This document shows, one piece after another, positions 2,193-33,658 of a DNA stretch of 64,000 nucleotides. The DNA is taken from positions 64,001-128,000 of the IMG/VR virus record IMGVR_UViG_3300027804_000045. One strand, 5' to 3'. The notes under the pieces were generated by a model. It did no database searches and had not been told where the DNA came from. It saw nothing but the letters and a program-made list of their open reading frames with translations. The stretch comes from a virus. A program made the translations under genes and the position numbers. Position 1 is the stretch's first letter, and the number at the start of each line of letters is the position of its first letter.

Positions 2193-5100
2193 TTAGCGTC
2201 CTTTAATTCCTTTTAATATTGAACTTTCTTTTGTTTTTTGTGGCTGAAGTTGTTGCATTCTCTTTTGTACTTCCGCATCAAGTTTAGGACGATCACGTTC
2301 TAAATAATGTCCCGGAACTTCTACTGGTTCTTCAGGCTGACTGATATCATAGGGTGCTGATTTAGGCGCCCCCGGCTTTTTATATACAGCATTCGGGTTT
2401 GGTACAGGTTTATCCTGTTTGTTCTTATCAGCATTCCTATCTAAAAATTTTTGTAATATTTCCATCTCATTCACCTGTGCTATTATATTATTTGTAGGAA
2501 CATCCGGGAAGTAATGTTTCATACCTTCTTTACCGTGTTCTTGTCTTACCATCAATCTTTGAATACTATCTAAATCTTTTGCACTGATTTTGCTGTCAGG
2601 ATCTAGTCCTAACTCACCAAAAGTATTTTTAATATATGTGTTTGTATCGTTGTTGTCTACTGGCGGGGCATACTTGTGAATCAACTGTCTGCCTGTCAAT
2701 CCTCTCTTTAATGCATCCAATGCTAACTGTCTGCGCATTGCTTCTTTGCCATCTTCGGGATTAGCAAATATAGCGAAACCATTTTTATCAAAGCCTACTG
2801 CTTTATCTAATACGTATCCTGGTCTACGTAGTGCGTCTGTACCGCGCAAATTGCCAGGATTATTTCTTGGATCTACAAAAGTACTGCCTGAGCTTCTACC
2901 ACTATCTGGATATCTGTTGCTAATTTTAGGTTCTACTTTTGGTATAGAAGCGACTGGTGCAACAGGCGCAATAATTGGTTCAGACTGTGTTGGTCTATTA
3001 TATATTATATCACTTAGCGTATCACCTTTTTGTACAACATAAGTATCGCCGGAAGGTAGTCTGATCTTTTGTCCTATATAAATTAAGTTAGGATCTTTAA
3101 TTTTATTTGCTGCTGCTATTTGTTTTATCAAATTTGCGTCATATTCTTTGACCGGCACTTTAGGTTCTATGGCTTTTACTTTAGCATAGTGATCCATTGC
3201 TGTGCCAGGTTTAGCAACTTTTCCAGCAGCAACTTTCCAACCCGGAGGTGCTGTTTGCTTAGTGATTGGATTTATTTTTGCAGGTTCTGGTCTGCCGCCT
3301 CTTACTGCTGCTGATGCCTTATCTAAAAATGCATTGATAGTTTTAGGACTTAATTCATTAACCTTCTCTGCTTTACCTTTTTTAGCATCCTGTTTAAATT
3401 GCAATCTAGTTGCGCGATTTATTCCGCTAAAACGCTTGTTGCCTTTTTGAAAGTCGCCTTCTTTATCAGCAGCACTTGCTTCTGTACCTGCCTTCTTTTT
3501 ATAACTTGCTAGAGTTTCAGGACTCAATTCATTTATCATCTCATCTTCAGGAGTCATAAGTGTAGTCTTAGATGTTTTTGCAGGTTGAGATGGTCTTTGA
3601 ATCTGATATTGGTTTTTAGGATCCGCGAACCAGGCACGTTGAATACTACTATCGGTTGGATCTTTGGCAGTTTCATCCCCTGCAAAATATTTACGCATAG
3701 TAGCGATACGTTTTGTTCCGCCTTTAATTGCGCTAGAAATACCTTCATCCATCTCATCTGGTTTAAGTTTAATCTTGCGATATGCTTGACCCATGCCACC
3801 TGGTGTATTGATTGTTTCTTCTATTTCAGGGGGCATCCATTTTTGATATTGTCCTGCTTTAGGCATATCGTCAAATGATGGAAGTGTTTGATCCCATGTT
3901 TTGTATTGGCCTGGCTTCATATCAGGACTCGCGGCTTGTCTAGATGTTTGAGCAGCAGGTTTTTTAACACCTATATCTTTATAATCAATATTATATTTGC
4001 GCATCAATGCGTTCATCTGTCTCTGTTGTATATCCATATCAACAGGATCTCCGCCGCGCATAATTGATTTAAACAATTGTGCTACTGTGTTTACCGCGCC
4101 TAGACGGCCGCCTGCTTCATCAAGTTCTTCGCCTAATCCAAAGCCGCCAACTGCACCTGCGCTATAACCTTCTTTGATACCTCGACCTATTGAACTTGTT
4201 GGTTTATAATTTTTAAAGTAATCTTTTACTGCTTGAGGATTGTCATAGGCAGCAAGTGCTGCTTCCGCACCTAATGACGCTGCTTGTGCTCCGAAATGGG
4301 GTACAAGGCCGGTAGTAGTAGCGACACCTCTTAATGCTGCACCAGCGTAATCTTTATTGCCTAAACGTTTTTGAAAATCTTTATAATCATCCTGTACAGT
4401 TAATAAAGTTGCTGCAGGTAAAACTCCCTTACCTATTGTTTTTGCTGCTTTCTTAATTGCGCCTGATGAAGGTTGAGGAACAGCAACAGCATCAGTATTT
4501 TCAAATGGCATTTCAGGTTGTGAATATTCAATCTTTCTTGGTCTTTGAGGTATTGCTACGTCAGTTGATCTGTTTCTATCGATAGGACCATTTGGTTCTG
4601 ACGTATCAGCACCTGGTGCACCTAATATATCAGAATCTTGCTCATCAGGTACAGCGACCGGAGGAGGAGTCATGATTGATGTGTCGCTAGATGGAGGTGC
4701 TGTTGTTATATCTACTGTATCTTTATCAGGCGAAGGCGGCGGAGGATTGTTGCTTGCGCTTGATGTAGGACCGCCACCGGATGGTGGAGGGGGAGGGGGA
4801 GGTGGAGCGGATGATGTCTGTGCGGGAGCAGTTGTTTTATCTCTTGGATCTGTACCTTTGACTAGCCCTGCCGCAGCGCCGCCGACAACACCTAATGCTG
4901 CTAATGCTGCTTTAACCTTTTTCGGTACAAGTGGAGATTTTGCGACATCATCAGCCCATTTACTGTTATCAGGAAGATTTTTCCACCAGCGCATGTCTGG
5001 TTCATAACCCTTTTTACCTATCTGTGCTCCTAAACTTTGTGGAGGTGCTGCAGGTGCCGCAGCAACAGATGGTGTCCTTGTAGTTTTAGGTTTTGTCGTT

Positions 5101-5750
5101 TTAGGTGTATCCGTACGTACAGGTTCCAATGCACCTGTCTGTGGATTTACTCTTGCTCTTGGTTTATCTGTAACAGGTTTATCTGTTGCTTGTGCAGCTT
5201 TTGCTGCTGCTCTTTGTTCGCGCTTACGTATAGCGTCAGGAGTTTGACTTAACTGACGACCTGACGTTTTTTCAGGTTGTGCTGCTTGTTGAGCTGGTTG
5301 ATTAGTGCCTTTTAATTTATCAATACCAAACGCTTGATCAACCTTTTGTCTAAATTCTGGATCATCAATATATTTTTGTATTTGATCACCTAAAATTGCG
5401 CCTAATGGTCCGCCGGCAAGTCCTCCAGCAATTTTACCTTTCCAACGCGCTTCTTCTAATTGTCCTTGCATTGCTAGGAAATCTTCATACATTTTAGTAG
5501 CTAGATTAACAAGATCGCTTGTATCAATTTCGGGATAGTTTGTTTTGATATTATTTTGATTTGCAGCTAACCATTTTGTTGCCTGACCTATCCATTCTTC
5601 AGCAGACAAATCAAAGTCTTGAACCATTGGTGTCATGATATAACGCTTTAATAGCATTTTTTCAGCAGCACTACCTTTTGGATTTTGACGTACAATATTT
5701 TGTATTTGGCGTGACGCTGCTTTATCTAAACCTTCAAAAATTTTACTCAT
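2193..5750 (-). CDS. Large modular virion (internal head/ejection) protein with C-terminal permuted LysM and NNPGN lysozyme-like domain
   Basis: 1185 aa; ANKIKDPNLIYIGQKIRLP + YVVQKGDTLSDI; RNNPGNLR...FAIF...KYAPPVDNNDT; many L/I/V-x-E sites. Confidence 0.7.
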   Translation of the reverse strand: MSKIFEGLDKAASRQIQNIVRQNPKGSAAEKMLLKRYIMTPMVQDFDLSAEEWIGQATKWLAANQNNIKTNYPEIDTSDLVNLATKMYEDFLAMQGQLEEARWKGKIAGGLAGGPLGAILGDQIQKYIDDPEFRQKVDQAFGIDKLKGTNQPAQQAAQPEKTSGRQLSQTPDAIRKREQRAAAKAAQATDKPVTDKPRARVNPQTGALEPVRTDTPKTTKPKTTRTPSVAAAPAAPPQSLGAQIGKKGYEPDMRWWKNLPDNSKWADDVAKSPLVPKKVKAALAALGVVGGAAAGLVKGTDPRDKTTAPAQTSSAPPPPPPPPSGGGPTSSASNNPPPPSPDKDTVDITTAPPSSDTSIMTPPPVAVPDEQDSDILGAPGADTSEPNGPIDRNRSTDVAIPQRPRKIEYSQPEMPFENTDAVAVPQPSSGAIKKAAKTIGKGVLPAATLLTVQDDYKDFQKRLGNKDYAGAALRGVATTTGLVPHFGAQAASLGAEAALAAYDNPQAVKDYFKNYKPTSSIGRGIKEGYSAGAVGGFGLGEELDEAGGRLGAVNTVAQLFKSIMRGGDPVDMDIQQRQMNALMRKYNIDYKDIGVKKPAAQTSRQAASPDMKPGQYKTWDQTLPSFDDMPKAGQYQKWMPPEIEETINTPGGMGQAYRKIKLKPDEMDEGISSAIKGGTKRIATMRKYFAGDETAKDPTDSSIQRAWFADPKNQYQIQRPSQPAKTSKTTLMTPEDEMINELSPETLASYKKKAGTEASAADKEGDFQKGNKRFSGINRATRLQFKQDAKKGKAEKVNELSPKTINAFLDKASAAVRGGRPEPAKINPITKQTAPPGWKVAAGKVAKPGTAMDHYAKVKAIEPKVPVKEYDANLIKQIAAANKIKDPNLIYIGQKIRLPSGDTYVVQKGDTLSDIIYNRPTQSEPIIAPVAPVASIPKVEPKISNRYPDSGRSSGSTFVDPRNNPGNLRGTDALRRPGYVLDKAVGFDKNGFAIFANPEDGKEAMRRQLALDALKRGLTGRQLIHKYAPPVDNNDTNTYIKNTFGELGLDPDSKISAKDLDSIQRLMVRQEHGKEGMKHYFPDVPTNNIIAQVNEMEILQKFLDRNADKNKQDKPVPNPNAVYKKPGAPKSAPYDISQPEEPVEVPGHYLERDRPKLDAEVQKRMQQLQPQKTKESSILKGIKGR

Positions 5751-23401: not shown

Positions 23402-25453
23402 TCAAGCATAAGTTGCGCCAACTGTATACCATTGCGTAGTAGTTGGGGCAACATACTGAATTGTAGAACCTGCTGGTTGTGTGAATCCAGCATTAGTAGA
23501 CAGTGTATTAATTATACCACCACTAGCAGGATATACTAATAAACTATTAGCACTTGTATTCGTTATAGTAATTACCATACCTGCAACTGCTGTAGGTAGT
23601 ACTACACCTTGACCAGTTGACACTGTTGAGACAACATCTATTTCTTTTGTAAGTGCTGTGGCTGTACCCTGTGTTGATCCTGCGGCACTTATACCGGTAG
23701 CCACGCTGCGTATATGATAAGATGTTACAGTTACATTTGCTCCGCTTATATTACCTGATGTAGTGAGTGAAGTCAACGTACCTACCGAAGTGATGTTTGG
23801 TTGTGCCGCTGTTGTTACCGTACCTGCTGTAGTTGCGCTTCCTACAGTGCCTGTCACATTCGCGCCCGCAATATTTGTAAGGCCTGCACCATTGCCATAA
23901 TATGCGCCTGTATTGACAATTACGTTACCGGTAACAGTTACATTGCTGTTTGTCTTATTAAACGTAAAGTTAGCATTACCGTTGCCAACACCATTGTCAT
24001 TAAATTGAACTTCAGTATTTGCACCGCCTATTGCACCAGCTGGGCCAGTCGCTCCTGTAGGTCCCACGATACCAGTAGAGCCTTGTACACCTGTTGCACC
24101 TGTAGGTCCTAGATCTCCTGTAGCACCTTGAATACCTGTCGCTCCTGTCAGACCTGTAGCACCGACTGGACCTTGAATGTTTCCTACGTCACTCCATACT
24201 CCGCCGGCTTTCACCCACAAGTCTCCAGTATCTTCAGCAATGACACCATTGCCATCAACTGCGCTAGGGAATGCCGCGTTTAGAGTTGCTTGAGGAGTAC
24301 CACCTACTGTAGGAACGCTTCCTATGATTGTTACACTAGTACCTGCTGGGCCAGTAGCGCCTGTAGGGCCTGCGACACCAGTCGCACCTGTCGGGCCAGT
24401 CGCACCTACTCCAGTAGCACCAGTTGGACCCGTTAAACCTGTACTACCTGTTGGGCCTGTTATGCCAGTAGCACCAGTAGAACCTTGCGGTCCTGTAGCA
24501 CCAGTCGCACCTGTTGGGCCACCGCTTGGGCCAGTAGAACCAGTAAGTCCCGTCGCCCCAGTAGCACCAATACCGGTCGCCCCGGTTTGGCCACCTGCTG
24601 ATATAGCGGCATAACCTGTCACTGAACTTGTGAATGTCAATGTAAGCGTATTAGCCGTATTGAATGTGATTGTAGGATAGTCATATCTACCTACAAAACT
24701 ATTACCAGTGCTATCAACTGGTTCAACGTTCACATATAAACTGTTGAGATTGTGAGTTACGTTCCACGTTGTCGATGACGAACTTTGTGTGTGGATGTAT
24801 GCGCCGCCAGCTGCACCTGTAGCGCCTTGTGGACCAGTAGCGCCGGTTGCACCAGTTAAACCAGTAGCACCCATTGGTGTAAATATATTGACTGTCCAAG
24901 GCGTATAAGGACCAGTACCACTACCCTGTCCACCTGTCACATTTACAACTAATGCACCTGTCGCTATATTATATGACTGAACTACACCAGTCATATATTT
25001 GTCTGTCTCACCGTCAGCAATGAAAATAATATTTTGAAAGGCAACGTAGGGTAAACCGGTATCTACTGTGCAAGAAATAGTCGACGGAATCTCTAGATTG
25101 ATTGATGCTGTTGTGCTTGTTTGATAATCAAGCATAGGTCCAGTAGCACCCATGCCACCATAACTTATCGCGGCATATCCTGTTTGCGGTGACGCAAAAG
25201 TAATAGTAAGTGTATTAGAATTTAAAAAGCTTATAGTAGGATAAGTAAGAGGGCTTACATTTTGATTTGCACTATCAATTACTTCAACGTTAAGATATCG
25301 CTCTCCCAAATTATGATTTACAGTCCAAACTGATGCTGCCACTAATTGTTCGTGGGTGTAGGTACCACCTGTTGGGCCAGTAGCGCCTTGAACACCGGCT
25401 ATAGCCGGTAACCATGTTGATGTCAAACTATCGTAATATTTTAATACACCCAT
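23402..25453 (-). CDS. Collagen-repeat tail fibre/whisker protein
   Basis: (G-A-T)/(G-P-T) triplet runs; two H.Q...S..W.V.HNL domains. Confidence 0.8.
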
Positions 25454-25481: not shown

Positions 25482-27878
25482 TTATGCGTAACTTGCTCCG
25501 ACTGTATACCACTGTGTCGCGCTTACAGCAAAGTACTGTAAACTTGCACCGGCTACATGAGTATAAGCTGTGTTGGTCGACAACGTATTAATCGTTGCGC
25601 CTGTTGCTGGATATACGTTTAAACTTGTCGCGCTTGTATTATTAACTATGATTACCATACCTGCAATTGCTGTAGGTAATACAATACCTTGCCCTGCACT
25701 TACTGTGCTTACAATGTTTATATCTTTTGTTATTGCTGTCGCTGTGCCTTGTGTTGATCCGGCAGCACTAATACCAGTCGCTACACTTCTTAAGTAATTA
25801 CCACTTAAAGATATATTTTCTGTCGTCAGAGTATTAGTATCTGTGCGATATGTTAGATCAACATCTCCACGCAAAATCTGATTAGTTGTTCTGTTCTCAA
25901 CAAATGTAGGATAATATGTTGTTGTTAACCCATTTGTATTTGTTATATCGATAGTAGTAGCATTAGACAATGCAGGACCAGTAGCACCTGTTGCTCCTTG
26001 CGGACCTGTTGGGCCTCCTGCAGGACCAGCTGGGCCAGTCGCACCTGTCGCACCTATACCCTCAATACCTGGCGTGCTAGTATCATACCATAATACAGTT
26101 GTATCTACGGGTTGAGTAGGTCCTTCAACTAAACCTGCTACACCAGTAGCGCCAGTCGCTCCTGTGCTACCAGGTATACCTGCCGCTCCAGCTAGATTTA
26201 CCTGCCAACTACTGTACACATTACCTAATGTGCCTACTACACTAGATACGCTAACTATCATCACTCCTGTTGCACTGTTATATGCGGCAACAGTAGCAAA
26301 CATACGTTGCGCTAAACTATGCGCAATAGAAATTTCTTGACCGGTAGCGTATGCTAAACCTATACCTACTGTCAATGTTGCTGGTCCGGTAGCGATAGTA
26401 AGTGATGTATTACTTGTTGTGAAATATCTATCGCCAGTAGCACCAGGAACACCTGTCGCTCCAGAAACACCAGTAGCACCAGTAGCACCGAGACCTGTAG
26501 CGCCTTGTGGACCAGTAGCGCCGGTAGCGCCTATACCTGTAGCGCCTTGTGGACCAGTAGCGCCGGTAGCGCCTATGCCACCTATACCCCAAGTTAGATT
26601 TCCGGTGCCGTCTGTGGTTAATACTTGTCCTGATGCGCCACCAAATATTTGAACTTTATTAGCATAACCTAAGTTTGCTATGCCACCAGTCACATGTAAA
26701 TTAGGTGTTGTTAGTTCAACATTTAAATAAATTTCATCTATATATCCAACATGACCATTTGCGAGAATATCTGTATCAAACGTTGTTTGTAATTGTCCAA
26801 ATTGTACTACATTTGGTTGTGCGTTTACTGAAATAGTAACGTTACTATTGGGGTATACGCGAATATTTGATGAACCGTTTTCAATTTCGGTAATATTACC
26901 GATAGATAGATTTGATAATCCGCCACCGTCGCCAACAAAATATGTTGCGTTAACATTACCGATCACATTTAAATTACTATTAGCAGCATTAAAAATTAAA
27001 TTAGGACTTGCTGCAAAATTATTGCTACCATCATTATATTGAATTTGACCTGCGCCGCCAGCTGGATATTGTAAATCCCAAGGTAGGCCATTTGCATATA
27101 ATAAGTTATCAGTGCGTACATTGCCTGCGCTGACTGATGATGCATTGACAAAATTTGCTTGAGCAAGATTGCCTAAATTTGCGTTACCGGATATTATGTT
27201 TCCTGCTGTTAATAATCCAGTGACATTTGCTGTAGCAATATTGGCTGTATTCGTAACAGTTAAATTTGAAGTGCTTACAACATTTGAAGCATTAATATTT
27301 GCCGCGTTAACAGTATTAGAAATATTAGCAATATTAGCTGTGATAACATTACCCACAGCAAGATTAGCGTTGCTAGTTATGTTATTTGCTAATATGTTAC
27401 CTGTAACGTTAAGAGTAGTTAGGTTTCCTACATTACCGAAAAAGTTTGTTGCTGTGATGTTGTTTGTCGCTACAACATTGCCGTTAGCGATTGTGACATT
27501 AGGATTGCCCGGACTTATATTGCCTATAATCAGTGATTCGTTGATAACTGTATTGTCAAGCAAATCAATCCATAGATTTGACAACCCTGAATCGATAATG
27601 ATTTGATCTAATTCAGATCCTGGAGTTAATCCTACGCCTAAACTTTGTGTTTTTACTTTTAGTTGATAAAAGTCGTTACTGATGATAACATTACCAAAAG
27701 TGGGATTTACGGTTAAGCCCTTCTCTTTTTTGGCACGATTGATGGATAAGACGCCGCTAGATGTCTGTAATTGATATAATTCATTAAAGTTTTCTTGTGC
27801 TTTTTGAAACCCAGTGCGTATCGCATCTGCATCTGGATCATCGGGAAAACTACCGAAATCTATATTCTGCTGTGCCAT
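25482..27878 (-). CDS. Collagen-repeat tail fibre protein with T4 gp9/gp10-like N-terminal attachment motif
   Basis: I..G..PDD...D.IR..F.K...NF.ELY, ANI-type repeats, GAT collagen. Confidence 0.8.
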   Translation of the reverse strand: MAQQNIDFGSFPDDPDADAIRTGFQKAQENFNELYQLQTSSGVLSINRAKKEKGLTVNPTFGNVIISNDFYQLKVKTQSLGVGLTPGSELDQIIIDSGLSNLWIDLLDNTVINESLIIGNISPGNPNVTIANGNVVATNNITATNFFGNVGNLTTLNVTGNILANNITSNANLAVGNVITANIANISNTVNAANINASNVVSTSNLTVTNTANIATANVTGLLTAGNIISGNANLGNLAQANFVNASSVSAGNVRTDNLLYANGLPWDLQYPAGGAGQIQYNDGSNNFAASPNLIFNAANSNLNVIGNVNATYFVGDGGGLSNLSIGNITEIENGSSNIRVYPNSNVTISVNAQPNVVQFGQLQTTFDTDILANGHVGYIDEIYLNVELTTPNLHVTGGIANLGYANKVQIFGGASGQVLTTDGTGNLTWGIGGIGATGATGPQGATGIGATGATGPQGATGLGATGATGVSGATGVPGATGDRYFTTSNTSLTIATGPATLTVGIGLAYATGQEISIAHSLAQRMFATVAAYNSATGVMIVSVSSVVGTLGNVYSSWQVNLAGAAGIPGSTGATGATGVAGLVEGPTQPVDTTVLWYDTSTPGIEGIGATGATGPAGPAGGPTGPQGATGATGPALSNATTIDITNTNGLTTTYYPTFVENRTTNQILRGDVDLTYRTDTNTLTTENISLSGNYLRSVATGISAAGSTQGTATAITKDINIVSTVSAGQGIVLPTAIAGMVIIVNNTSATSLNVYPATGATINTLSTNTAYTHVAGASLQYFAVSATQWYTVGASYA
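26493..26576. repeat. Perfect 42 bp tandem duplication in the collagen region
   Basis: acctgtagcgccttgtggaccagtagcgccggtagcgcctat x2. Confidence 0.9.
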
Positions 27879-27983: not shown

Positions 27984-30900
27984 TTACTTTGCTAGACCTG
28001 CTAGTTTCTTCCAGGCTTTAACATCTTCGTCGCCTTCTCTTGCTTCTTGACCAGCAATAACAGGTATTGTAGTTTGACCTGTTGATTTAGGCTTGTTCAA
28101 TCCACCGCTGATAGTCTGAGTCATAAAATCAGTATCGCGTGTGAATGCTGCATCTGTGCCTTTTTGACCTGCATCATTTGCCCATTCATCAAGTTTTGTC
28201 TGTTGCATGACACTCTTTAATAATTCATCACTATCGCCTTCCATTCCAGGCATACCCTTTAACATTGCGTCAAGTTGTGCCTTTAAACTATCCATATCAG
28301 TAGTATTTAGGGCGTCCTTTTCACTTGGTTCACCAACTCTTTTTCCAGTAACTTTTACTGGTTGCAACATATCATCAGTTGGTGGAATAGTTCTTGTAGC
28401 ATCTTTATCCCCTGTTGGGACTCTACGACCAGTGACCTTAACTGGTTGCAAATCATCAATGCTAGGTTTTTTTAATCCTCTACTCTTTAACCATGCTGCT
28501 AATTCATCATATGTATTTGCACCTGATAGATTTAACAAATCACCTAGTTGTCTGTCTCCTGGCAATTCTTGATCTTTAGGTGTTGCTCTCTTTGATGTTA
28601 CATCTACAGGAGGTAGAACATACTTATCAAAGTCTGCCATATTCACTTTTGATCCACCAGGAAGTGTGATGTATTTTTCATCTTCCTGGCCCATGTTACC
28701 TATTCCGTATCTTCGTAATGTTCCGCCTAGATTTTTTGAAATGGCTGCAAACTTGTCCTGCATATTTTTGAATATATCATCAAAATTTGTCTGCATATTT
28801 GACATAGCAGGAGTGTTGCCTGCCATGTTTGGCATTGATGGCATTGTTGGCATCTTGAAATTCTTCATAGCATTATCATATTCTGCTTTTGAAGCTGGTT
28901 TGCCATCTACTTCATATGATGAAGTATTGCTTGATTGATTTTTTACATCAAATTCTGGCATGCCATCAGCACCTTTGCCTAGATTTTCTGCACCAGGTAA
29001 TGAAACTACTTCGGCTTCAGGACTATCAGGCTTGTCAATGTTATCTAATTTTGACATGATGTCTTTCATAGAACTATTGACATCACCCGCATCTTCATTA
29101 GTTGCACCACCTTTTGATGCACCACTCAATGCTAATGCGCTGTCAATCTTGCCTGCATCAGCTTGGCTTTGTTCGTAACCTTCACCATCATCTTCAGCGA
29201 CCATGAATTCGCGCTGATCTAATGTTTCGGTTTCACCTACTTCTTCTTTGTCTTTTTTGAATGCGCTTGCTGCACGTTTTGCTAGCATAGCAGTTTTAAC
29301 AGGATTTGCTAATGCAGCACGACCTGCAAGACCTGCTAATCTACCTAATGCTGCTAATGCTGGTGCAGCTTCATCAAGTTGATCTGACTTTATTTGCGCT
29401 TCAATTGTAGTTTCTAAAACTTCTTCAGTTTTTTTTTCACAACCGCATGAACTTTCCATCATACCGCATTCATTGCAAGTATGCTCTTCTTCATGTCCAT
29501 GATCATGTCCGTGACCATGATCATCGTGCGATTCTAAACCAGTTAATTTTGATAATAAGTCATCCATGCTTGGCATGTCATGACCATTAAATTTAGGTGC
29601 GCCATAATCACTTGCTGTTGCAATAACTGTTGGTTCAGCAGGTGTCAATACTGATTCTTTATCACCGAAACCACCTAAACCTACTTGCTTGATAAATGCT
29701 AATAGTTTTTCACTATCGCCATCTGTAGCTGTAACGCTTACGCTGTTTGGGCTACCTTCTTGACCAGTTGACATTGATACTGAAAGACCTTCATTAACGA
29801 CTTTGCTTTCTGTTAATAGTGCATTAAGTTGATTTTCTAAATCTTCAAATGCGTATGTTTCTGAAACATCTTTATCTTTGAATGTTTGACCAAATGCTTT
29901 AAATGTGTCACCTGGTGTAGTTTTTGCTTTGTGCTTCAACCAATCACCTTTGTCCATTTCATCTAAATCATCTTCTTGCATTTGTTGTGCTGCTTGCTGA
30001 CCGATATTGCTTAAGTTTGCACGGCTTTGCATTACAGCGCCCATGTTTGATGAGCCATCTTGTTTAGTTGCAGCAACGCCACCTACATTCATTTGTGGTT
30101 GTTGCGGCATAGCAGTAGCAACTGGCTTCACAGGTACATTTGCTTGCGGAGCAGGATTAGTTGCTGAAGTATTTACCTGTTGTGCTTGTGGCTTTTGAAC
30201 TGGTACTGCTGCCATTTGATTTGTATTTTCATCGACAGCGCCAAAACTTGCCATGTCGTCTACGACATCTTGTGATGTTTCTTCATCAACATAACCACGA
30301 CCTGGAACAAGTCCATAGCATTCTTCTAGGCCACACTTGTAACCTTCAAAGTAATGCTTTGCTTCTTCCATATCTTCGTAGTGTTTTACGCGGCATGGTT
30401 GCTCACGTAGACCGTGTACATAGCCTTCGCTATATGCTGCTTTTAATAGATTGCTCATAGATTCATTTACCTTCTTTTTCTTTTTGTCAGCTGCTGCCTT
30501 CTTCATTGATTCTTTTTTATTACCGTCATTGTCAAGATCAATGAAATCTGGCTTTGCCTCCAATACGTTATCGCTGCGACCAGCGCCTAGTCCTGCACCA
30601 TAATCTGGGCCTGACTTTGGAATTTCTGCTTCTTTTACTTTCTTGGGCAGTTTACTTACTTTCTGACCATGACTCTTTTTAATAAATTCTTTTGCTACAT
30701 CTTGACTTACGCCTGTTTTCTTGGCAACACTCTTGTCACCTGCTACGGCGTGCATCAATTTTGCTTGTTGTTGACTTGCGAATTTCTCGTCAACCTTTTC
30801 TTCTTTCATTGCTGCACCTTCACCTTTCTTCCAGCCACCTTTCGCTCTTAAAGCAAAATTGATTTGACGCATTTTCTTTGCTTGTGGACTATTTTCATCG

Positions 30901-33014
30901 TGCGGTCCAGACTTCTTTAGTTTAGCAAGCATGGATTTCAATTCTTCAACAGACTTGTCTTTGTACTCGCCTGTCGGTTTTACAACATCAGCAGGTTTAT
31001 CTTTTTTGAAAGCATTATATATGACTCCGCCTCCTCGCTTGTCCATTTGAACCTTTAGTTTTTCAGCTTCATCTAGCATTTCTTCTGCAGGTTCTTTTTC
31101 TGGAGCATTGTCTTTACCGCGTTTTTTACCCATATAGTATCCCTGATCGTCTTTTCCGATGTTGAAAAGTTTTCTAAATAAACTCTTTCCATCACCCTTA
31201 ACGTCAGGTTCTTTTTCTTTTGGTCCTAATTGTGCTCCTAATCTTGTATTAAGATCACCTACTGCGCCTGCATTTTGACTTGCTATTTGTGACCATCTTT
31301 CTGGGTTATCTTTATAAGTTACTGTTTCAATTTCCCCACTAGGATTTCTTACCTTGAATGCATAATCAAGAGGCACATTAGCATCTATTTGATTTCTTCC
31401 AACCATGCTGTCATATTTTTCTTTTGATACAGGTCTAGTTCTACCAGTATTTGGATCTCTGATTTGATAACTTGTTTTTACATCTGCCTTTGCAGGTTCT
31501 TCTGCTGGCTCTGATGGTTGTTCAACATCACCTGCTGCGTCTACTGGCTCTTGATTTACAGTATCAACATCTTTTTGTAATTGATCTAATGTATCGTCTT
31601 TAGGTGCTGCTGGTTGAGCAGGAGCCTGTGTGCTACCGGTTTTTAAATAATTGTTTAATTCATCATATGTATTAGCACCGGCAAGATTTAATAGGCGGCC
31701 TAATTCTGCATCGCCTGGTTTATCTTGATCTTTAGGTTGTGTTCTCTTGCCTGTTACTGTTACTGGTTCTAATTCGTCTGCTGCATCTGATGGTTGTTCT
31801 GGTTTCTCATCAGCTTTAGCATCTGCCGGCTTCTCATCAGCTTTAGCATCTGCTGGCTTCTCATCGGCTTTAGCATCTGCTGGCTTTTGATCATCTGCAG
31901 GTGCGGTGCTATCTCCTGCTTTTTGCGCTCTTAACTTGTTTAATAAATCTATATTACCTTGATAATCTCTTGGTCTATTTTTATAGGCTTCAGGATCTAA
32001 TCTACGAATCTCTGCTCCTACTTTACCATAGCGTTCTTCATCACTCATTCCTGCCAATTGTTGAATTCTATCAATTTCATCAGGTTTTTCGGCTGATGGG
32101 GGAGGAGTTGCGCTAACATCCGCTACAGATGAGATAGTAAGATAGTTTGGTGCTTTTGGTGCATCTGGTGCTACAGGAGCGACTGGCTGTGCAGATGCCG
32201 CAGGAGCCACTGGCTGTGCTGGAGCAGCAGGAGCTACCGCTGCTGGTTTATTGTCTGCTGCGGTTGCTGGTTTATTATCTGCAGCAGGTTTATCGTCACC
32301 CGCTAATGCAGCCATGCCTGCTGCGCCGGCGCCTGCTCCTATTGCAGGACCGCCTCTTGATGTTGCTGCACCTGCTTTTGATGCTAATGATTGATTTGGT
32401 AAATTAATTGCACTTTGAGGATTTTTAAATCCGCTAGCAAAATTCTTAAACGGTTTACTGAAATCGTCGCCGTATTTTGCACCTAATTTTAATATATCGT
32501 CGATGCCTTCTTCTATGCTATCTTCAGCAACTTGCTTGCCTGATGTTTGCACTGATGCTCTTTTAGCAGCAGCTAGTGCTGCTTGTTGTTGCTGTTGTTG
32601 AATTCTATTTGGTGGAAGTATGATGCTCAAACCTCTTGCACCTAATCTACGTAGCATATCATTGACAGCTACCCCTGCTTGTCCAGGAACATTCACGTTT
32701 AAAAATCCTGCTTGTCCTGGTACTGGTTTATTATCTGGACCAACTACAGGAATAGGAAACTGACCTTCGTTTAATATTTCTTGTTCAGTTTCTTCAAAAT
32801 ATTCTTTTAATGATTTCTTTTTCTTATCATCATATCTGATATCAGCAGCAACTTTCTTGCCTGCTTTTTCGGCGCGTTCATCGTCACTACCCTTATGATC
32901 TTCATCATATTCAATATCCTTAGTGACTTCTTCGCCTGCCTTTTTGGCCTTGTCATCTTTTTCGGCTGTTGATTCAGCCTCATTTACTATTTGTAGAAAT
33001 TTCTTAAATTCCAT
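27984..33014 (-). CDS. Very large low-complexity modular protein, putative internal head/core polyprotein
   Basis: 1676 aa, acidic, Ala/Pro/Lys-rich; many hydrophobic-x-E sites; DxDxDG and His/Cys modules. Confidence 0.65.
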   Translation of the reverse strand: MEFKKFLQIVNEAESTAEKDDKAKKAGEEVTKDIEYDEDHKGSDDERAEKAGKKVAADIRYDDKKKKSLKEYFEETEQEILNEGQFPIPVVGPDNKPVPGQAGFLNVNVPGQAGVAVNDMLRRLGARGLSIILPPNRIQQQQQQAALAAAKRASVQTSGKQVAEDSIEEGIDDILKLGAKYGDDFSKPFKNFASGFKNPQSAINLPNQSLASKAGAATSRGGPAIGAGAGAAGMAALAGDDKPAADNKPATAADNKPAAVAPAAPAQPVAPAASAQPVAPVAPDAPKAPNYLTISSVADVSATPPPSAEKPDEIDRIQQLAGMSDEERYGKVGAEIRRLDPEAYKNRPRDYQGNIDLLNKLRAQKAGDSTAPADDQKPADAKADEKPADAKADEKPADAKADEKPEQPSDAADELEPVTVTGKRTQPKDQDKPGDAELGRLLNLAGANTYDELNNYLKTGSTQAPAQPAAPKDDTLDQLQKDVDTVNQEPVDAAGDVEQPSEPAEEPAKADVKTSYQIRDPNTGRTRPVSKEKYDSMVGRNQIDANVPLDYAFKVRNPSGEIETVTYKDNPERWSQIASQNAGAVGDLNTRLGAQLGPKEKEPDVKGDGKSLFRKLFNIGKDDQGYYMGKKRGKDNAPEKEPAEEMLDEAEKLKVQMDKRGGGVIYNAFKKDKPADVVKPTGEYKDKSVEELKSMLAKLKKSGPHDENSPQAKKMRQINFALRAKGGWKKGEGAAMKEEKVDEKFASQQQAKLMHAVAGDKSVAKKTGVSQDVAKEFIKKSHGQKVSKLPKKVKEAEIPKSGPDYGAGLGAGRSDNVLEAKPDFIDLDNDGNKKESMKKAAADKKKKKVNESMSNLLKAAYSEGYVHGLREQPCRVKHYEDMEEAKHYFEGYKCGLEECYGLVPGRGYVDEETSQDVVDDMASFGAVDENTNQMAAVPVQKPQAQQVNTSATNPAPQANVPVKPVATAMPQQPQMNVGGVAATKQDGSSNMGAVMQSRANLSNIGQQAAQQMQEDDLDEMDKGDWLKHKAKTTPGDTFKAFGQTFKDKDVSETYAFEDLENQLNALLTESKVVNEGLSVSMSTGQEGSPNSVSVTATDGDSEKLLAFIKQVGLGGFGDKESVLTPAEPTVIATASDYGAPKFNGHDMPSMDDLLSKLTGLESHDDHGHGHDHGHEEEHTCNECGMMESSCGCEKKTEEVLETTIEAQIKSDQLDEAAPALAALGRLAGLAGRAALANPVKTAMLAKRAASAFKKDKEEVGETETLDQREFMVAEDDGEGYEQSQADAGKIDSALALSGASKGGATNEDAGDVNSSMKDIMSKLDNIDKPDSPEAEVVSLPGAENLGKGADGMPEFDVKNQSSNTSSYEVDGKPASKAEYDNAMKNFKMPTMPSMPNMAGNTPAMSNMQTNFDDIFKNMQDKFAAISKNLGGTLRRYGIGNMGQEDEKYITLPGGSKVNMADFDKYVLPPVDVTSKRATPKDQELPGDRQLGDLLNLSGANTYDELAAWLKSRGLKKPSIDDLQPVKVTGRRVPTGDKDATRTIPPTDDMLQPVKVTGKRVGEPSEKDALNTTDMDSLKAQLDAMLKGMPGMEGDSDELLKSVMQQTKLDEWANDAGQKGTDAAFTRDTDFMTQTISGGLNKPKSTGQTTIPVIAGQEAREGDEDVKAWKKLAGLAK
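31804..31887. repeat. 27 bp coding tandem repeat x3 (KPADAKADE)
   Basis: Near-identical ttctcatcagctttagcatctgc units. Confidence 0.85.
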
Positions 33015-33025
33015 GATAAAACCTC

Positions 33026-33658
33026 TTACGCCATCGCGCCTGTTTTTGGTTTAGCAGGGCGTGTGATGTTTGTCATTGGGCTCTTGTTGCCCTTTGATTT
33101 ATCATCTAGGTATGGCTTGAATGGATCGAAACTGTCTGGAGTGCGCTTTGCATCATAAGGAATATCTTTGCCTTGGAAACCATCCTTGCTTTGTGCTTTG
33201 ATGCTATCTAGATATGAATTACCATAATCTTTATTTGCTTTTTTAGCTGCATCGCCCGCATCTTCCATCTCTTCATGTGTCAATACAGGACTATGTTCCA
33301 TCTGATTAGCATACTGTTCGCTTTCACTATTGATGCTGTCGTCATATTTGCTATCAACTAAACGTACATAATTTACATTATAACCTAATAGTTGTGCCAA
33401 CTGTTGCACCATTGGTTCTGTAGCAGGATAACGGAACTTGCAACGTAGTAGTGTTACTGGTTCGTTGCTTAAGCCTGGAAAACCATAAGCATCTTTAGCG
33501 ATAGGAAGTGTCTTAGGTGTGATTGGAGTTGCTGGATCAAACTTCTTTAGATTGTGAATGAACAAATCTATGAAATTTTTATCAATTTCTCCAGCAATTT
33601 TAATTGTTACATCATATAAATGTACACTTTCAGCAATGTATTGTTTTAGGCTTTTCAT
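33026..33658 (-). CDS. Conserved putative head/prohead protein
   Basis: MKSLKQYIAES N-terminus, late promoter 33678-33685. Confidence 0.65.
   Translation of the reverse strand: MKSLKQYIAESVHLYDVTIKIAGEIDKNFIDLFIHNLKKFDPATPITPKTLPIAKDAYGFPGLSNEPVTLLRCKFRYPATEPMVQQLAQLLGYNVNYVRLVDSKYDDSINSESEQYANQMEHSPVLTHEEMEDAGDAAKKANKDYGNSYLDSIKAQSKDGFQGKDIPYDAKRTPDSFDPFKPYLDDKSKGNKSPMTNITRPAKPKTGAMA

Follow-up and report, generated by a model that had tools for sequence, protein, structure and literature searches.

The TonB boxes of outer-membrane transporters such as BtuB, FhuA and FepA follow the pattern x-L-x-x-V-x-V-T-(A/G)-x-(R/K), often with acidic residues ahead of them, and lie in a flexible context. 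TonB boxes are also known on foreign proteins imported by bacteria: group B colicins, S-type pyocins and pesticin each carry a box of their own in a disordered, charged translocation domain, and are taken up through TonB-ExbBD. Four motifs resembling these boxes are found in P0001, a 1676 amino acid (aa) protein encoded by a 64,000 nt stretch of viral DNA (positions 64,001 to 128,000 of IMG/VR record IMGVR_UViG_3300027804_000045), hereafter the window, to which coordinates refer unless another contig is named. The contig from which the window is drawn is 150,743 bp long, is estimated to be 43% complete and has a GC content of 37-41%.

To our knowledge, TonB is recognised as a requirement for phage infection only through receptor gating, as for T1 and phi80. 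The passage of phage proteins and DNA across the periplasm, and the source of power for it, are still poorly understood. One class of protein carried within phage heads is exemplified by the internal proteins of T4 (IPI-III and Alt), cargo with an N-terminal capsid-targeting sequence that is removed by gp21 after (L/I)xE. No account of a phage virion protein with a TonB box came out of full-text literature searches, and phage-borne boxes go unmentioned in a 2024 review of TonB-dependent uptake (PMC11658791).

Likeness of the P0001 motifs to TonB boxes

The motif of P0001 is by sequence indistinguishable from the TonB box of TonB-dependent outer-membrane transporters. Translation of the gene bore out the four motifs listed by an earlier, sequence-only reading of the window (Table 1), and their consensus is an 11-residue short linear motif, (D/E)-L-x-P-V-x-V-T-(G/S)-(K/R)-R. 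When six-frame open reading frames (ORFs) of at least 80 codons were searched across the whole contig, the strict pattern P[VIL]x[VIL][TS][GAS][KR][KR] was matched four times within the P0001 ORF and nowhere outside it. A TonB-box matrix was then built by Gibbs sampling of the N-terminal regions of 41 transporters from five genomes (consensus ALPTVVVTATR), the five transporters that had been found through the motif itself being excluded from training. The four motifs were the best four windows of P0001 (22.1 to 11.2 bits, the next window reaching 9.3), inside the score range of genuine boxes, which had a leave-one-out median of 17.1 bits and an interquartile range of 8.9-20.9. All other ORFs of the contig gave a maximum of 10.6 bits over 43,188 windows, none attaining 12 bits, and 500 shuffles of P0001 gave a mean maximum of 5.4 bits. 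Four windows of at least 12 bits in distant P0001 homologues were rejected as T/S-rich low-complexity stretches.

The same likeness emerged from bacterial sequences. DNA encoding LxPVxVTGK(R/S) was sought in 596 Gb of bacterial genomes, and 120 matches were sampled (the total is thus at least 120), most of them in spurious frames. Of the 43 ORFs of at least 140 aa in these sampled matches, five belonged to the Plug/TonB-dependent receptor family, more than to any other in Pfam (at most two each); in all five transporters the motif lay 20-35 aa ahead of the Plug domain, which is the position of the TonB box. Real transporters use the identical LxPVxVTGKR string as their box. The motif likewise agrees with the Xanthomonas TonB-box consensus tLDXVXV (PMC1790865).

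Unlike these transporters, P0001 is a phage protein with neither Plug nor barrel, and its four copies of the motif are internal or close to the C-terminus; the contig itself encodes neither TonB_C nor a Plug domain. Since it also lacks the N-terminus of a transporter or bacteriocin, and with it the canonical position of a box, P0001 is placed outside those families, as a protein whose motifs may work like TonB boxes.

Two of the motifs were described in the sequence-only reading as heading a duplicated unit of about 45 aa, and this duplication is real: the unit is 47 aa long, and its two copies have 30 of 47 residues in common but only 92 of 141 bases, with different codons at 10 of the 30 shared residues. 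The low DNA identity and the differing codons indicate an old duplication held at the protein level and no recent DNA repeat; the synonymous differences show selection on the protein. Of the 47 positions, 20 are invariant. The acidic, disorder-like setting ascribed to the motifs also stood: P0001 has an isoelectric point of 5.0, a grand average of hydropathy of -0.8 and a composition enriched in A, K, D, G, E and P. In an AlphaFold2 model of aa 1330-1676, built from a six-sequence alignment, motifs 2-4 lie in coil with a predicted local distance difference test score (pLDDT) below 50 (mean of the fragment 40), and the mini-domain of unit 2 forms helices at residues 158-168 and 173-182 of the modelled fragment.

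Motifs and unit are present in the five nearest homologues, P0002-P0006 (45-86% identity to P0001), and in three more IMG/VR relatives (L155, L167 and L179), and are absent from the remaining family members examined. Being limited to the nearest relatives, they form an accessory module that is dispensable for the core role of the family. Column identity among divergent homologues is 72% in the motifs, 40% in the adjacent linker and 81-83% in folded or conserved parts. None of the homologues compared departs from the L-x-P-V core or the basic pair; in six homologues, motif 2 retains L, P, V, V and T and motif 4 retains L-Q-P-V and K-R-V, and the D-L-x-P-V core of motif 3 is likewise unchanged.

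A further instance of the unit was observed in P0122, a 563 aa protein which has in common with P0001 a larger module (aa ~320-460 of P0001), in which ..EERYGKVGAEIRRLDP.. is followed by the motif SLEPVIVTGKR (20.4 bits) and this by the hairpin. Its 8 kb metagenomic contig also encodes a cytidyltransferase-domain protein. As P0122 carries module, motif and hairpin together, the unit evidently moves between different virion-type proteins.

Motif arrays in other phage proteins

When the 47-aa unit was searched exhaustively as a profile in 1.84 billion proteins, eight matches were obtained, three of which (P0124, P0126 and P0127) were set aside as resembling chance repeat matches, and a word-based search with the same unit recovered the P0001 family only. 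The exact motif, when sought in IMG/VR, was found at 48 loci. These searches led to proteins in which copies scoring 12-27 bits are arranged in tandem (Table 1), in which overall similarity to P0001 was undetected, and whose spacers differ completely from one protein to another. The recurrence of one 11-mer between such different spacers accords with the behaviour of a multivalent short linear motif and not with that of a structural repeat, and multi-copy arrays in unrelated phage proteins argue for a general, multivalent use of the tag.

The array proteins have one of two conserved C-terminal tails, ..NVWNEESLRLKDALGL or ..GDGxSDDIPAMLxDGEYVF.., and most, P0123 being the exception, have a hydrophobic Gly/Ala-rich region, either N-terminal or central. 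Their genes lie inside or adjoining virion-gene clusters: the P0123 gene comes after those for an SU10-type adaptor, a tail fibre and a virion structural protein, a protein whose domain is lysin-like or tape-measure-like is encoded two genes downstream of P0125, and the gene at L181 is preceded by virion structural and fibre genes. No cultured relative was found by tblastn with P0125 or the proteins of L138 and L162. P0123 matches cultured phages by its C-terminal tail only, the proteins concerned being Caulobacter phage 'tape measure' proteins from a podovirus-like ejection-gene cluster, whose own repeats (VDEIVVTP, VDPVVVNP) score low with the matrix. For instance, gp065c of Caulobacter phage GB2A bears a tape-measure annotation but is encoded in a podovirus-like cluster of adaptor, fibre, small protein, three large proteins and lytic protein, and has four degenerate D-x-V-V-V-x-P repeats (VDEIVVTP, VDPVVVNP, VSPVTVSP and VDELVIKP) where its metagenomic relatives have arrays. 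As a cultured phage, GB2A is usable as a test system for the TonB-box idea.

Table 1. Location of the motifs, of the gene that carries them and of other features discussed in the text. Locations are positions in the window, or in the contig named before the colon; ↓ marks a putative cleavage site.
Feature	Location	Strand	Details
Motif 1, LEPVTVTGKR	31743..31772	-	aa 415-424; 22.1 bits as ELEPVTVTGKR
Motif 2, LPPVDVTSKR	28587..28616	-	aa 1467-1476; 19.5 bits
Motif 3, LQPVKVTGRR	28422..28451	-	aa 1522-1531; 11.2 bits
Motif 4, LQPVKVTGKR	28338..28367	-	aa 1550-1559; 14.2 bits
Unit 1	31638..31778	-	motif 1, then PGD..LG.LLNL.GA.TYDEL mini-domain, predicted helix hairpin
Unit 2	28482..28622	-	motif 2, then the same PGD..LG.LLNL.GA.TYDEL mini-domain
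Array, P0125 / L181	L132:3143-4849 (P0125); L181:9197-11710	+ (L181)	9-10 copies of at least 12 bits; ELPPVTVTAKR, EEEVAPTVTD spacers
Array, L172	L172:2075-4984	+	9 copies of at least 12 bits; ELPPVTVTGKK, D-x-CCC-IP spacers (CCC triplet in every spacer)
Array, L138 / L178 / L183	L138:2419-4308	- (L138)	8 copies of at least 12 bits; ELAPVTVTGK(K/R)
Array, P0123	L133:10001-13387		9 copies of at least 12 bits; ELAPVTVTGSR, 17-20-aa spacers
P0001 gene	27984..33014	-	1676 aa; acidic, modular, largely disordered, probably part of the virion
N-terminal leader, MEFKKFLQIVNE↓A	32979..33014	-	T4 capsid-targeting sequence look-alike, (V/L/I)xE site at its end
Helix hairpin, conserved family-wide	30312..30506	-	aa ~837-901; pLDDT 86-95; best-conserved block of the family
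Small alpha/beta module, conserved family-wide	29679..30014	-	aa ~1001-1112
C-terminal domain, conserved family-wide	27987..28190	-	aa 1609-1676; end ..WKKLAGLAK
His/Asp-rich run and Cys cluster	29400-29520	-	aa ~1165-1205
Insert	30624-30776	-	aa 747-797
Upstream 210-aa gene	33026..33658	-	leader MKSLKQYIAE↓S; PA5oct gp282 homologue, E 2e-6
Collagen-repeat tail-fibre genes	23402-25453; 25482-27878	-	directly downstream of the P0001 gene
1185-aa protein gene	2193-5750	-	start MSKIFE↓G
P0122	L136:3615-5306		563 aa
GB2A gp065c	L235:7510-9252		annotated 'tape measure'

The carrier protein and its genomic neighbourhood

The homologues of P0001 number at least 218, span 920-1720 aa and are without exception metagenomic; an identical protein is encoded on a 204-kb contig. 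Tblastn with P0001 and megablast with its region found nothing in 50,697 cultured phage records, and no relative was found in the bacterial genome contigs searched. Pfam returned nothing significant for the whole protein or for six segments of it, and a search of the ESM Atlas returned a single uninformative viral cluster (0.77). The matches among PHROGs, confined to aa 747-797, comprise two families of unassigned function and one annotated as a virion structural protein. Only four blocks are common to the whole family (aa 1-70, 830-920, 1020-1200 and 1600-1676), the remaining modules being gained, lost or relocated among relatives. Along this string of short modules are conserved (L/V/I)xE sites, such as VNE↓A, LNE↓G, VLE↓A and LDE↓W, and the protein also contains simple repeats in the form of ADAKADEKP and DNKPA runs. 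AlphaFold2 models are mostly coil, with a mean pLDDT of 61 for aa 820-1210. A reading of P0001 as a tape measure was rejected, because its length varies from 1303 to 1687 aa among relatives with the same gene order and its models are mostly coil; the neck genes interleaved in its cluster, and the lack of any tape-measure PHROG or Pfam match, likewise oppose such a role.

A fold search with the conserved core found ribosome modulation factor matches only, to the family-wide helix hairpin and all of them weak (E 0.03-0.6; TM-score at most 0.77 on the target), one being to an annotated protein of Caulobacter phage CcrBL9, and the Pfam RMF model does not match the hairpin; the likeness is regarded as a lead only. 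Further along the protein, a His/Asp-rich run (HDDHGHGHDHGHEEEH) is followed by CNECGMME-x-x-C-x-C, in which the cysteines are near-invariant across the family, which suggests a metal-binding knuckle. The insert at aa 747-797 is found in P0001 and P0002 only, P0003 having divergent sequence at that place; its PHROG matches are 16759 and 25121, of which the second carries the annotation 'virion structural protein', and it looks DUF3008-like. P0008, a distant homologue, carries PF11450.

The P0001 gene lies in a minus-strand cluster that runs from a gp13-like adaptor through a deoxynucleoside monophosphate (dNMP) kinase, a 1191-aa sheath, two tube proteins, a 120-aa protein, a head closure protein, a 157-aa protein and the 210-aa protein to P0001 and the collagen-like fibres, an order that is retained in P0001 relatives. 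The sheath is 44-46% identical to those of the jumbo phages Phosso, PA5oct and Atu_ph07, and cultured phages with a similar sheath all have Gram-negative hosts. The source phage is an uncultured jumbo myovirus related through its sheath to PA5oct and Atu_ph07. The order matches that of PA5oct gene for gene: adaptor, dNMP kinase, sheath, two tubes, head closure and gp282 or its homologue come first, and the slot that P0001 then occupies is taken in PA5oct by gp281 (NC_071039.1), a 499 aa 'structural protein' bearing an electrospray ionisation tandem mass spectrometry (ESI-MS/MS) note. The PA5oct record annotates gp282 likewise as a structural protein with an ESI-MS/MS note. Like P0001, gp281 is acidic and has a start of the M-x-N-I-N-D-I-L-R-L-A-G type, but the similarity between the two sequences is not significant and the L-x-P-V-x-V motif is absent from the printed sequence of gp281.

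Both P0001, with MEFKKFLQIVNE↓A, and its 210-aa neighbour, with MKSLKQYIAE↓S, have starts that resemble a capsid-targeting leader with an (L/I/V)xE cleavage site; the consensus start of the family is MMKDILxKLxxLE↓A. The likeness to the T4 internal head proteins consists of these leaders, of the M-K-x-x-x-x-F-I-x-E type, of the acidic, dispensable-looking character of P0001 and its variable modules, and of the S77 protease in relatives of its clade. A protease of this T4 gp21 type is encoded by PA5oct and Atu_ph07, and was not found in the 150-kb contig, itself only ~43% complete. P0001 differs from the T4 proteins in having no sequence homology to them, in being far larger at 1676 aa and in being mostly disordered. 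We infer that P0001 is a modular, largely disordered virion protein that is probably packaged in the head and possibly processed. The suggestion that P0001 is an injected head protein is made plausible by its leader, by the gp281 slot and by the S77 protease of relatives.

Other genes of the window also encode likely virion components. The 1185-aa protein has a lytic transglycosylase/endolysin-like domain (PHROGs 873, 2276 and 4602) and is a candidate ejected wall-degrading virion protein, which could be the true tape measure or a hub-associated lysin. The genes at the position of the two collagen-repeat fibres vary among the otherwise syntenic relatives L004, L006 and L009.

How the motifs might act

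The motifs of P0001 may be a form of TonB-box mimicry, acting after ejection by adding strands to the beta-sheet of the TonB C-terminal domain, a reading to which we give slightly less than an even chance. P0001 would probably be directed into the head by its T4-type N-terminal leader and would leave through the tail during infection; its delivery to the periplasm, its engagement of TonB and the advantage gained by the phage are all steps that we infer. The Gram-negative hosts of all cultured phages with a similar sheath are in keeping with this reading. A chain held in this manner would gain a handle on TonB-ExbBD, driven by the proton-motive force, by which it could be pulled in, unfolded or anchored towards the inner membrane. 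Alternatively, the benefit may lie in soaking up TonB, which would block the TonB-dependent uptake of competing phages and bacteriocins; in line with such titration, a free TonB-box pentapeptide is reported to inhibit TonB-dependent processes in vivo (Tuckman and Osburne 1992, as given in the reference list of PMC7142613). The proposed mechanism resembles that of group B colicins, S-type pyocins and pesticin, in that a foreign protein crossing the envelope would bear a TonB box in an unstructured region. Those bacteriocins, however, are soluble toxins with a single N-terminal box that are delivered via a transporter, whereas P0001 has multiple boxes on a phage virion carrier and would be delivered, if at all, via a contractile tail.

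Several observations count against TonB-box mimicry. The motifs are carried by some 6-9 close relatives only, out of a family with 218 members or more, and in P0004-P0006 the T-G of motif 3 is replaced by Q/N-S, a change away from the box consensus. The motifs lie at aa 415 and 1467-1559 of 1676, internally or towards the C-terminus, and not at an exposed N-terminus like the boxes of transporters and bacteriocins. As the AlphaFold2 model was built on only six sequences, its low pLDDT is a weak sign of disorder. Similarly, because the five genomes behind the matrix were each reached through one motif-bearing transporter, the boxes in them may resemble the motif more than those of bacteria do on average. 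Lastly, a VTVTG strand following L-x-P is simple enough to suit another partner that binds by beta-augmentation.

The motif might instead be an assembly tag used within the virion, whose strand docks P0001, and the podovirus-like array proteins, on the portal, the inner core or the capsid wall, its likeness to a TonB box being convergent. The location of the array genes within or beside virion clusters, features that fit ejection or tape-measure-like proteins packed in capsids or tails, the head-targeting-like leader of P0001 and the generic, amphipathic character of the strand would all accord with this. Yet the same 11-mer (L, P, V-x-V-T-G/A, K/R) recurs in lineages with no detected sequence similarity, which presumably have different portals and cores, its scores equal those of genuine TonB boxes, and most members of the P0001 family, which must also assemble, do so lacking the motif; an assembly tag is accordingly unlikely.

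Rather less probable still is that the motif binds another strand-accepting protein of the envelope, such as TolA domain III, a TonB paralogue, a periplasmic chaperone or a POTRA domain. The C-terminal domains of TolA and TonB have a common fold and both bind partners by strand addition, TolA is used by filamentous phages and group A colicins, and a sequence matrix cannot separate partners that prefer similar strands. Against this, the matrix was learned from the TonB boxes of transporters, the exact motif occupies the TonB-box position in real transporters, and the P0001 motif is not known to resemble TolB or TolA boxes.

It is very unlikely that the motifs lack a function and are left over from duplications inside a low-complexity protein: the other simple repeats in P0001 and the movement of modules between relatives would be in keeping with such an origin, but the motifs are conserved well above their flanks, the copies have diverged synonymously and the motif recurs in unrelated phage proteins. 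Least credible is that they are proteolytic processing sites, either dibasic K/R-R targets of an omptin-type or phage protease or polyprotein boundaries, for although two basic residues end every P0001 copy, P0001 looks like short modules strung together, conserved (L/V/I)xE sites among them, and relatives encode an S77 prohead protease, a T4-type protease cuts after (L/I)xE, a site that the motif lacks, conservation covers L-x-P-V-x-V beyond the dibasic pair alone, and the array versions often end in A-K-P, G-Q-Q or G-S-R.

TonB-box mimicry can be extended beyond P0001, in a reading that we regard as speculative and rather doubtful: several lineages of tailed phage with no detected similarity, namely jumbo myoviruses, podovirus-like phages with ejection proteins and phages with tape-measure-like proteins, may arm the proteins that they eject into the envelope with 1-10 TonB boxes, so that the unfolded chain would be gripped and drawn in step by step by TonB-ExbBD, or TonB would be titrated against rivals. 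Were TonB boxes on virion proteins to be functional, they would link the dependence of phages on TonB with the hijacking of this motor by bacteriocins, forming a parallel in phages to the import of group B colicins and an energy source, unrecognised until now, for the first steps of infection. Ejected proteins would then have an energy source or a docking point that could be tested, titration of TonB would suggest itself as a new way of excluding superinfecting phages, and phage proteins that are delivered into the periplasm would be recognisable by a simple sequence marker.

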